Of a stretch of DNA of 64,000 bases, positions 44,801 to 47,800 are shown piece after piece. The position numbers and the translations under genes are program-made. The DNA comes from Amoebidium appalachense (lineage: Eukaryota > Protista > Ichthyosporea), in NCBI GenBank assembly GCA_963693365.1, contig CAVNZM010000016.1, positions 2,693,957 to 2,757,956 on the forward strand, written 5' to 3'. Every line of letters starts with the position of its first letter. The first letter of the stretch is position 1. The notes beneath the pieces were generated by a model, which was given only the letters and a program-made list of their open reading frames with translations, had not been told where the DNA came from and ran no database searches.

Positions 44801-47800
44801 GGGGGAGGGGGGAGGGGGGGAGGGGGGAGGGGGGAGGGGGGAGGGGGGAGGGGGGGTGAGTGAGTGAGTGAGTGAGTGAGTGAGTGAGTGAGTGAGTGTG
44901 TGTGTGTGTGTGGGTGTGTGGGTGTGTGTGCACGCGCACGAGGTGTGTGTGTGTGTGTGTGTGTGTGTGTGTGTGCGTGTGCGTGTGTGTGTGTGATGCT
45001 ATTCCGCGCACAGGAGACTTCCATACAAAAAGGTGATTGAACATACAACGTGTAGAGTAGACGCCAACCAATGTTTGTCTCCCCCCTCCCCCCCCCCCCC
45101 CTACCGCCCCCTCCTCCCCCTCCCCCCCCCCGGACACACACACATCCACATCCCACCACTGTGTGTGTGTGTGTGTGTGTGTGTGTGTGTGCACGTGCGC
45201 TTGTGCGTGTGCATGTGGGTGTGTTTGTGTCCTTTCTAATACGTATTTGCGTATACCCATTGGGTGGACATCTATGGCTTGCCAGCAATACAACACGTGC
45301 TTGCATACTGATTGTCTTTCAGATAGAAAAAAAAGTCCTGAAATAACGGTAGTCTTAGCAATATAGCAATGGGGTTGATAGGGCCGTGGGAGTATAGGGG
45401 CAGTAAGAGGCCTAGGGTCACACGAGAAGAAAACATCATGTGTGAACTGAACGTGCATGGAAAGGGGAGGGGGGACGGGGGGAGGGGGGGGGGGGGGGGG
45501 GGAGAAGGAACTGGGGCAGGGGAGGAGGAAAGGGCGGAGAGAGAGGGGGGGGGGGGGGGGGGGGGTTGCAATACCAAAAGGTGGGACTTTTTCCTGTCGT
45601 GGTATTGGTGGAAGAATTTCTTGGCCTGCAGATAGATTGTTAGCACGTGGGCATGAGAGGCACAAGGATATGTGCATGTGTGTGTGTGTGCCTCCATGTA
45701 TTCCCACGGGTGCATGCCCAAAGGCATATGTGAGGATAGCTGTGCATATCGGTGAGCAAATGTGTGTTTGCGCATAACGAAGCCAGTGTGTGTGTCTGCA
45801 AGTGGAAGTCTGAATGTGTGTGTGTGCACAAGCACATCCGTCTGGGTGTGCACACGTGCCCAGTGTGTGTGCATGCTGGTGTGCTCTTATGTCCACTCGG
45901 AAAATGCAGCAACCCCCCCCCCCCCCTCCTCCTATCCCCACGGAAACCTCCCACCCTCACCCTCACCTCCCCCCTCCCCCCCCCCCCTCCCCTCCTCCAT
46001 TCCCCCTCCCCCCCCCCCCCCCCCCTTCCTCTCCTTCCCCCACACCCACCCACCCACCCACACACACACCTCTCCCTCAGTCCATATACTCTCCTGCCAA
46101 CGATATCAGGTCACCCTTCAACCCAGGTACAGCTCTAGGCACAGGTAATCCGTGTCTTCCCCCCCCACCCCACCCCCCTCCCCAACTCTCTCTCTCTCTC
46201 TCTCTCTCCCCCCCCCCCCCCCTCCTCCCTCCCCACTCTCTCCTTCTCTCTCTCTGTGTGTCTCTCAACCACCCCTACCACGGATAACAGGTCGCCCTTC
46301 GGGCCAGGCAGCCGGCACGGCCCTAGGCACTGTGTGGTCCGTGCCCCCCCCCCCCCCCCCCCCCCCCCTCCCCCCCCCCCTCCCCCCTCCCCCCCTCCCC
46401 CCCCTCCCCCGTGCGCGCAAAAAACAAAAAAACCTCTCCATCTCTCCCTCACTCACACACACACGCCCTCCTACCATTGATATGAGGTCGCCCTTCAACC
46501 CAGGCACAGCCCTAGGCACGGTGTGGTCCGTGTGGGCCACAAAGTCAGCCACGAGGGCATGCAGCCGTAGGAACTGCTCGTAGCTGACCTTGGCTGTCTG
46601 GTCTGCACGCAGTTGCAGCAGCTTGGTGATCCGCACGTGGATCGCCTGACGAACCAATGGGTTGGATGAGTTAAAAAAGAGGGTTTTATGCATAAAAAAC
46701 GTCTGGATTGCCTAATACACCACTATGATTCAGGGACAGGTGTTAAGGGGGGGGGGGGGGGGGGGGGGGGGGGGGGGGGGGGGGGGGGCTATAATTATGC
46801 GTTAAAAATGTGGATTGCATAAGGCACCGATGGGATCCGTGTTTTCTAAAAAAAGGGGTTGTGCACAAAGTGGTGTGGATTGCTTGAGCAACCAATGGAA
46901 TAAGTTTGTTAAAAGTACCTTAGAAGTATTCTTAGAAGTATTGGAAATGTGAATCGTGGATCAACTAAATACTAACGAGAAAATTGCGTTCTTGGGTTTA
47001 TATAAACACAGCTTGTTGTGCCCCTTGTTGTACTTGTACTCCTAGGCTGTGCTCGGAGTAATCGGAGCAAAACAATAGTCTCTTTTCTTTAGTCCCTTTT
47101 CCTTCCCCCCCCCCCCCCCCCCCCCCCCCCCCTTTTCCTTCCTTTTTTTTTTTTTTTTTTTTTTTTTTAATGAAAAGTTAATGATTTACATGTCATGCAC
47201 AAGGTGGTTAGGGTCGGTTTAGAAACAACCACCTGAACCTTTGGTGATACGGACACGTGGGTAAAACACAACCTAATGAAATAGCCCGGTGTGTGCACTA
47301 TGCAACTGCAAGGGGGGGAAAAAAGGAACATTGAATGATTTAATTCAACACCTTTATTCTTTCCTACTAATTGAGTAGTTAAGGCACTCTAAAATTAGAG
47401 AGCCAGTTAGAGTCTCTTAAGAGCTTCCTCACTATAATGCAAGACGGGGGAGGTTTTACCTCCGCGGCGCCACACACAGCATCAGTGCTTTCACGTATCA
47501 ACGTGTCGATTTCAGTCTCGGTAAGGAGGCTGCGGTCTGCCTGCCCACTGCTTGTGCCGCCGCTGTGTGTGTGTGTAAGTGTGTGTGTACGTGTGTGTGT
47601 GTGTGTACGTGGGTACATGTGTGTGTGTGCGTGTGTGTGTGTGGTCACGTGTTTGTGTTTGTGTTTGTGTTTGTGTTTGTGTGTGTGCGTGTGTGTGTGT
47701 GTGTGTGTGTGTGTGTATGTGTGCGTGCGTGCGTGTGTGTGTGCGTGCAGGTGTGTGTGTGACCGTATGTAGCCGTGTGTGTGCGTATGTATGCACGTGT

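Follow-up and report, generated by a model that had tools for sequence, protein, structure and literature searches.

The intron behind exon 17 of VPS54, a housekeeping gene, in Amoebidium contains extra pieces that resemble the end of that exon, and the question they raise is whether such pieces were copied from the adjoining exon, as in an ordinary tandem duplication, or came from a homologue that had diverged while still encoding protein. The window analysed here, a 64-kb stretch of Amoebidium appalachense DNA, holds the gene on its minus strand (38854–59671). Requiring AG and GT or GC at the intron ends and an exact match to the transcriptome protein P0004, a EukProt record for Amoebidium parasiticum, left a single set of 26 coding exons that runs from 59671 to 38854 and encodes 942 amino acids. 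P0004 (942 amino acids, 100% identical) was the sole protein retrieved with an exon 19 query, and Pfam recognizes the Vps54 and Vps54_N domains in the product. VPS54 proteins other than that of Amoebidium share at most 39% identity (best 120 of 716 hits). Neither those 120 nor the exon 19 search, which listed one match from 133 candidates, included a VPS54 from a second Amoebidium or a close ichthyosporean.

Live exon 17 (46475–46645, minus strand; 171 nt) ends in a GT donor that is in use according to both the gene model and a spliced short-read contig from run X13. Intron 17 contains two unused head-to-tail copies of a unit made of the exon 17 end, the donor and the intron start. The initial annotation had pointed out these copies; their number, their donor-to-donor spacings (196 nt from the live exon to relic 1 and 181 nt from relic 1 to relic 2) and the counts of changes were reproduced on the 26-exon model. 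Relic 1 (46279–46343, minus strand) comprises the last 19 codons of the exon with a 7-nt insertion, keeps a GT donor and has no acceptor. Relic 2 (46098–46155, minus strand) comprises the same 19 codons with a 1-nt deletion; its donor, which had been counted as part of the copy along with that of relic 1, is now GC and scores −0.1, below all 25 real donors. Relative to the live exon, relic 1 exhibits five silent codon changes, the replacements I/L and M/V, a two-letter L/P codon and the insertion, which over 19 codons gives 5.5 silent and 3.5 replacement changes (dS 0.50, dN 0.09). In its last 15 codons, relic 2 exhibits M/L and five silent changes; over 19 codons it has six silent changes, two replacements and the deletion, and, with the codon that carries the deletion left out, six and two over 18 codons (dS 0.65, dN 0.05). 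Between the two relics there are 7.5 silent and 4.5 replacement changes, and against the live exon they have only one silent allele in common, consistent with the earlier observation that they carry mostly different synonymous alleles. The Leu at the L/P site of relic 1 is invariant in 11 of the 11 homologues shown in the alignment, and at the I/L, M/V, M/L and H/Y sites the Amoebidium residue differs from that of most of the 11. Because L/P falls on an invariant Leu and the other changes fall where Amoebidium itself departs from most homologues, the changed residues suggest a long coding phase followed by a short phase of decay.

The live exon is followed by a G-rich intron start that ends in G25 (46344–46474, minus strand), and relic 1 is followed by a second, weakly similar copy that ends in G8 plus 3 nt (46156–46278, minus strand). 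Relic 2 therefore starts 3 nt after its G-run, and the description of both copies as starting directly after such a run holds for relic 1 only. The sequence 5′ of each relic resembles an intron start, not an acceptor: the G fraction there is 0.53–0.95, compared with a median of 0.15 and a maximum of 0.50 for the 25 real acceptors. The intron-start sequences after the two relics score 23 and 20 against the live intron start and at most 7 and at most 10 against the 24 others, but scores of 23 and 20 are common among all 300 control pairs, and the homology is thus weak. In exon coordinates, relic 1 starts at nt 114 and relic 2 at nt 113, and two independent illegitimate joins would agree so closely in about 2% of cases, by a rough estimate. 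Because the starts agree within 1 nt, relics 1 and 2 likely reflect one junction that was reused, which goes against the separate illegitimate joins at homopolymers envisaged in the initial annotation.

In an alignment of each of the 26 exons with each of the 25 introns, two of the 50 adjacent pairs scored above all 600 non-adjacent controls. These were exon 17 and exon 14 with their own downstream introns (scores of 74 and 38, respectively; best non-adjacent pair, 37), which places relics behind 2 of the 25 VPS54 donors. The third relic (48524–48555, minus strand) lies 257 nt downstream of live exon 14 (48781–48926, minus strand), whose boundaries come from the gene model and from spliced contigs of runs X9 and X12, and it comprises the last 9–11 codons with a strong GT donor. 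It differs from the live exon by five silent changes and no replacement over nine codons, and by five and two over 11 codons, and it was recovered by scans that were blind to silent changes. It shows a CAG, an in-frame 24-nt piece and then a donor scoring 8.6, like real donors; its homology extends 4–8 nt upstream of that CAG. There is no G-run at its start. A G-run is thus found at one of two independent junctions, against about 25–29% expected in these intron starts, and the supposed need for one is not supported. A second, translated scan of the 64-kb window minus the repeat block at 22.6–38.5 kb yielded no relic beyond exons 14 and 17, just intron-internal repeats, with 0 matches at control distances. 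One candidate, an exon-10 piece in intron 11 (score 33), was dropped as lying within the control tail.

Short tandem duplication is routine in VPS54 introns, and only the signature of selection needs explaining. At least five further introns (9, 10, 12, 16 and 24) carry short tandem duplications, two of them across acceptors. In a mirror case, a 179-nt tandem copy of the intron-10 end, the acceptor and about 15 nt of the exon 11 start (51078–51262, minus strand) lies upstream of the live exon 11 acceptor, its intron part 21% diverged; in intron 16, the acceptor and first three codons of exon 17 recur in three decayed copies, 65–107 nt from one another (46697–46901, minus strand). These acceptor-side copies are too short for dN/dS. 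Duplications internal to introns are found in intron 9 (15/61 nt; 51547–51750), intron 12 (86 nt; 49541–49712) and intron 24 (about 100 nt; 39546–39852). The VPS54 introns are rich in G and C runs and CA/GT repeats, low-complexity sequence makes up 38% of the window, and the sense strand of the intron starts (38978–59619) tends to be either very rich in G or very rich in C. In four introns G makes up at least 60% of the first 150 nt, and introns 14 and 17 belong to these four (P of about 0.02, post hoc); R-loops or G-quadruplexes might be linked to such G-rich, relic-bearing introns, a suggestion that is likewise post hoc. A search of 38500–60000 against Rfam returned 0 matches.

The initial annotation had expected a dead copy to gain mostly non-synonymous changes. 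That expectation does not hold, because the live copy keeps gaining silent changes, and about 40% silent changes are expected even for a copy that was dead from birth. Compared with this null, the single-pair P values are 0.07–0.12 for relic 1, 0.03–0.05 for relic 2 and 0.008–0.009 for the exon-14 relic. Simulated P values are 0.006–0.007 for the exon-17 trio and, for the exon-14 relic, 0.006–0.007 over the nine-codon core and 0.06–0.07 over 11 codons. Fitting a codon model to either tree shape under each of three mutation spectra (six settings) gives a relic dN/dS of 0.15–0.2 with a joint P of 1–2 × 10−4; when the boundaries are extended to doubtful replacement codons (12 settings), the values become 0.2–0.3 and 2–3 × 10−3. 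The relic dN/dS thus stays at 0.15–0.3 in all 18 settings, with a 95% set that reaches at most 0.5 in this small sample, and dS between relics and live copies is 0.5–1.3. Decay of methylated CpG was rejected as a cause: on inspection, few silent changes lie in CpG, and AT-biased nulls barely shift P. The whole result consists of about 22 substitutions in three relics of one gene, and the exon-17 P values are subject to selection, as the case was chosen for its silent changes; the exon-14 P value is free of that. We consider the silent excess probably real and the signature of selection moderately strong. The comparison of coding sequences supports the view that, through most of their history, the relics diverged under constraint at the protein level, in agreement with the proposal that they diverged while coding, and the exon-14 relic repeats the pattern.

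Short-read contigs from seven runs were compared with the window, four at exon 17 and four at exon 14; the window itself may derive from one of the DNA runs, and the comparison skipped the repeat-masked interval 46151–46417, which includes relic 1. Relic 2 is present in a contig from run X3 (46050–46150) with one other letter and a depth of 17, compared with 20.8 at the live exon, and this contig continues from the relic into intron-17 sequence. Run X1 covers live exon 17 and the intron start at 0 differences and has no contig over relic 2. The exon-14 relic, from 48527, is joined to intron sequence in contigs from X4 (0 differences) and X3 (one adjacent intronic change); neither run has a contig on live exon 14, and gaps of this kind, like that of X1, carry no weight as evidence. 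As for splicing, which the initial annotation had proposed to check, the spliced contigs use the live donors only (for relic 2 and the exon-14 relic, relic 1 being masked). The X13 contig joins exons 16, 17 and 18 at the live sites with 0 differences and leaves relic 2 uncovered, and X9 and X12, labelled DNA by guess, yet spliced, use the live exon-14 donor with 0 differences and lack the exon-14 relic. Relic inclusion was thus seen in none of the three spliced runs (X13 for relic 2; X9 and X12 for exon 14), nor in P0004, with the reservation that contigs miss rare isoforms. The relics are likely to be without present function. The divergent allele that had been supposed to invade the gene did not appear: the runs differ from the window by 0–1 letters in exons 14 and 17, the compared contigs contain no second expressed copy of either exon at 80% identity or more, and no allele with the silent letters of the relics occurs in the seven runs, none of which held a diverged Amoebidium allele. 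Two other candidates were set aside: run X15 (share 0.07) matched microsatellite words only and does not count as strain evidence, and a metagenome locus retrieved with the exon 17 query (L001, one locus from 598 pattern matches) is a chance match, 70% GC and intronless.

Our main reading, to which we assign a probability of about 0.5, is that the relics were captured from diverged homologues, either other alleles or a sister lineage, and were not copied from the adjoining exon. A low dN/dS requires that both copies went on being translated during most of their separate history. Neither a paralogue nor another expressed copy was seen, and the relics are not built like exons, so that the likeliest source would be separate genomes that were later joined; because the runs differ by 0–1 letters, far below a dS of 0.5–1.3, the donors would be sister species or extinct lineages. 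Microsatellite-rich introns may lose similarity fast, which would leave exons as the sole pairing sites for a diverged homologue. A break in an exon would then allow one end to invade the homologue and to copy its exon end with about 130 nt of intron, and the copied end would join the old end without homology, displacing the old exon end into the intron. With such a junction in place, a further relic sharing its breakpoint could arise by unequal crossing-over between a relic and the live exon end of another allele. The outcome would be equivalent if an ordinary tandem duplication came first and the live exon were then replaced through allelic exchange, and the data fit the two routes alike. 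The geometry of one-sided repair, with a seamless exon junction and a non-homologous junction, fits the relics, and plain tandem duplication gives the same geometry. Points against capture include that the donor allele is unseen and that short tandem duplications of the ordinary kind abound in these introns.

A plain tandem duplication across the donor on the same chromosome, dead from birth, would account for the relics if the silent excess came from chance and from the reader's selection of the case. The short tandem copies in at least five other VPS54 introns, two of them across acceptors, favour such an origin, the shared breakpoint suits simple array expansion, and under a null that is already about 40% silent relic 1 alone is hardly exceptional (P 0.07–0.12). 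However, the joint P remains at 10−4 to 3 × 10−3 across mutation biases, tree shapes and boundaries, and the exon-14 relic was found blind to silent changes; we regard this origin as rather unlikely. The relics might instead be former alternative or mutually exclusive small exons, which diverged under selection while spliced and then either lost their acceptors or were themselves bypassed upon loss of an upstream intron. The shared start and the low dN/dS would follow without a foreign allele, the exon-14 relic has the CAG, the in-frame piece and the donor of such an exon, and AAG stands just before relic 2. Yet AAG occurs at none of the 25 real acceptors (24 CAG and one TAG), relic 1 has no AG, both exon-17 relics lie behind G-runs, and the homology of the exon-14 relic continues past its CAG. 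Moreover, the exon–intron alignment revealed no whole-exon duplicate beside any of the 26 exons, and relic 2 is absent from X13, the exon-14 relic from X9 and X12 and both from P0004, although contigs drop rare forms. We hold former exons to be quite unlikely.

That two or three haplotypes were merged in tandem during assembly is very improbable. No short-read contig bridges a live exon and a relic, relic 1 is masked and one DNA run may be the source of the window, all of which would suit an artefact; against it, relic 2 continues into intron 17 in X3 at a depth near that of the live exon, two runs join the exon-14 relic to intron sequence, the relics carry frameshifts and a dead donor, and no second live exon 17 allele is found at 80% likeness. 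All other explanations together have a slim chance.

We class the relics as a variant form of intragenic tandem duplication, a known process. Internal gene duplication was reportedly treated by Gao and Lynch in 2009 as intragenic tandem duplication across a splice site. The likeness lies in a head-to-tail arrangement of exon end, donor and intron start, in use of the first donor and in an unchanged protein; the relics have this direct unit including the splice site, with the intron part weakly alignable. The difference is that a dead copy is expected to have a dN/dS near 1, whereas the relics have 0.15–0.3. One-sided invasion, in which one end undergoes synthesis-dependent repair and the other end joining, is known from reporter and gene-targeting work. 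It involves a homologous junction within conserved sequence, a second junction without homology and a net insertion copied from a possibly diverged template, a pattern that the relics may share; their own template would be a putative one. We found no paper in which one-sided invasion is described as giving rise to recoded exon-end relics in nature. Background on homeologous recombination and on SDSA is given in PMC5783719 and PMC6923311, respectively. Integrative elements at tRNA and tmRNA genes (Islander; PMC4383910) likewise leave the displaced end of a gene behind its restored copy, with tandem arrays at one site, but the relics have no integrase or cargo and their spacers are 123–131 nt of G-rich sequence of their own intron, so that the likeness is an analogy only. 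Mutually exclusive tandem exon duplicates also adjoin one another and diverge mostly at silent sites; the relics, by contrast, are partial and absent from spliced contigs, and an acceptor and donor of their own are found to differing degrees (relic 1, no AG; relic 2, AAG and GC; exon-14 relic, CAG and GT). Intron gain through break repair in Daphnia (PMC4202315) shares repair scars and direct repeats in introns, but the relics lengthen the existing introns 14 and 17 of 25 and create no new intron position. A search of the open-access literature, outside which most subscription papers lie, returned no description of silently recoded exon-end relics.

Beyond this gene, it is a tentative and somewhat doubtful possibility that exon ends in Amoebidium are routinely swapped through recombination with sister species or diverged alleles and that the old ends are stacked in introns. 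The introns would then archive, genome-wide, alleles that have died out as well as cryptic sex or hybridisation, and the process would be an enzyme-free eukaryotic counterpart of the ends displaced by bacterial integrative elements. Were this general, vanished alleles would survive as dated samples in dead intron sequence, a single genome could reveal earlier genetic exchange in this lineage, which is related to animals, and introns would have a route of growth in which exons are the only pairable islands. It would also be a warning that a low dN/dS in an exon-like intronic piece is not proof of alternative splicing. If a genome-wide tally proved neutral, the relics would be ordinary duplication scars. 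Sarre et al. (PMC11244446) distinguish two Amoebidium species and describe one isolate whose divergence kept it from scaffolding well against the reference; a term search of the passages and supplement for ploidy or heterozygosity returned nothing. No report of sex or recombination in Amoebidium was found in the open-access literature on ichthyosporeans.

The surroundings of the gene offer several further observations. Head-to-head with VPS54 lies an intronless endonuclease/exonuclease/phosphatase gene (60515–61414, plus strand; Pfam PF03372) in otherwise intron-rich surroundings; an exact look-up of a stretch of it gave no match. The start of an ERG4/ERG24 sterol reductase-like gene follows at 63383–63769 on the plus strand (Pfam E of 6.5 × 10−11). 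On the minus strand of 1–20000, scattered exon-like pieces indicate one or more unannotated spliced genes; no exon-end relics were seen there, and four of the pieces gave no match in Pfam. The interval 22800–38550 is a 16-kb intergenic block of nested, diverged repeats, probably decayed transposons or satellite, with at least nine copies of a unit about 250 nt long, minisatellites of 20 and 32 nt, an exact 55-nt pair at 32327 and 32402, and a 1.5-kb tandem pair at about 35900 and 37450. Finally, a dispersed repeat of 115–160 nt, with 67–71% identity between copies, occurs at 5671–5801, 9111–9282 and 43795–43942, and one of its copies lies in VPS54 intron 19.
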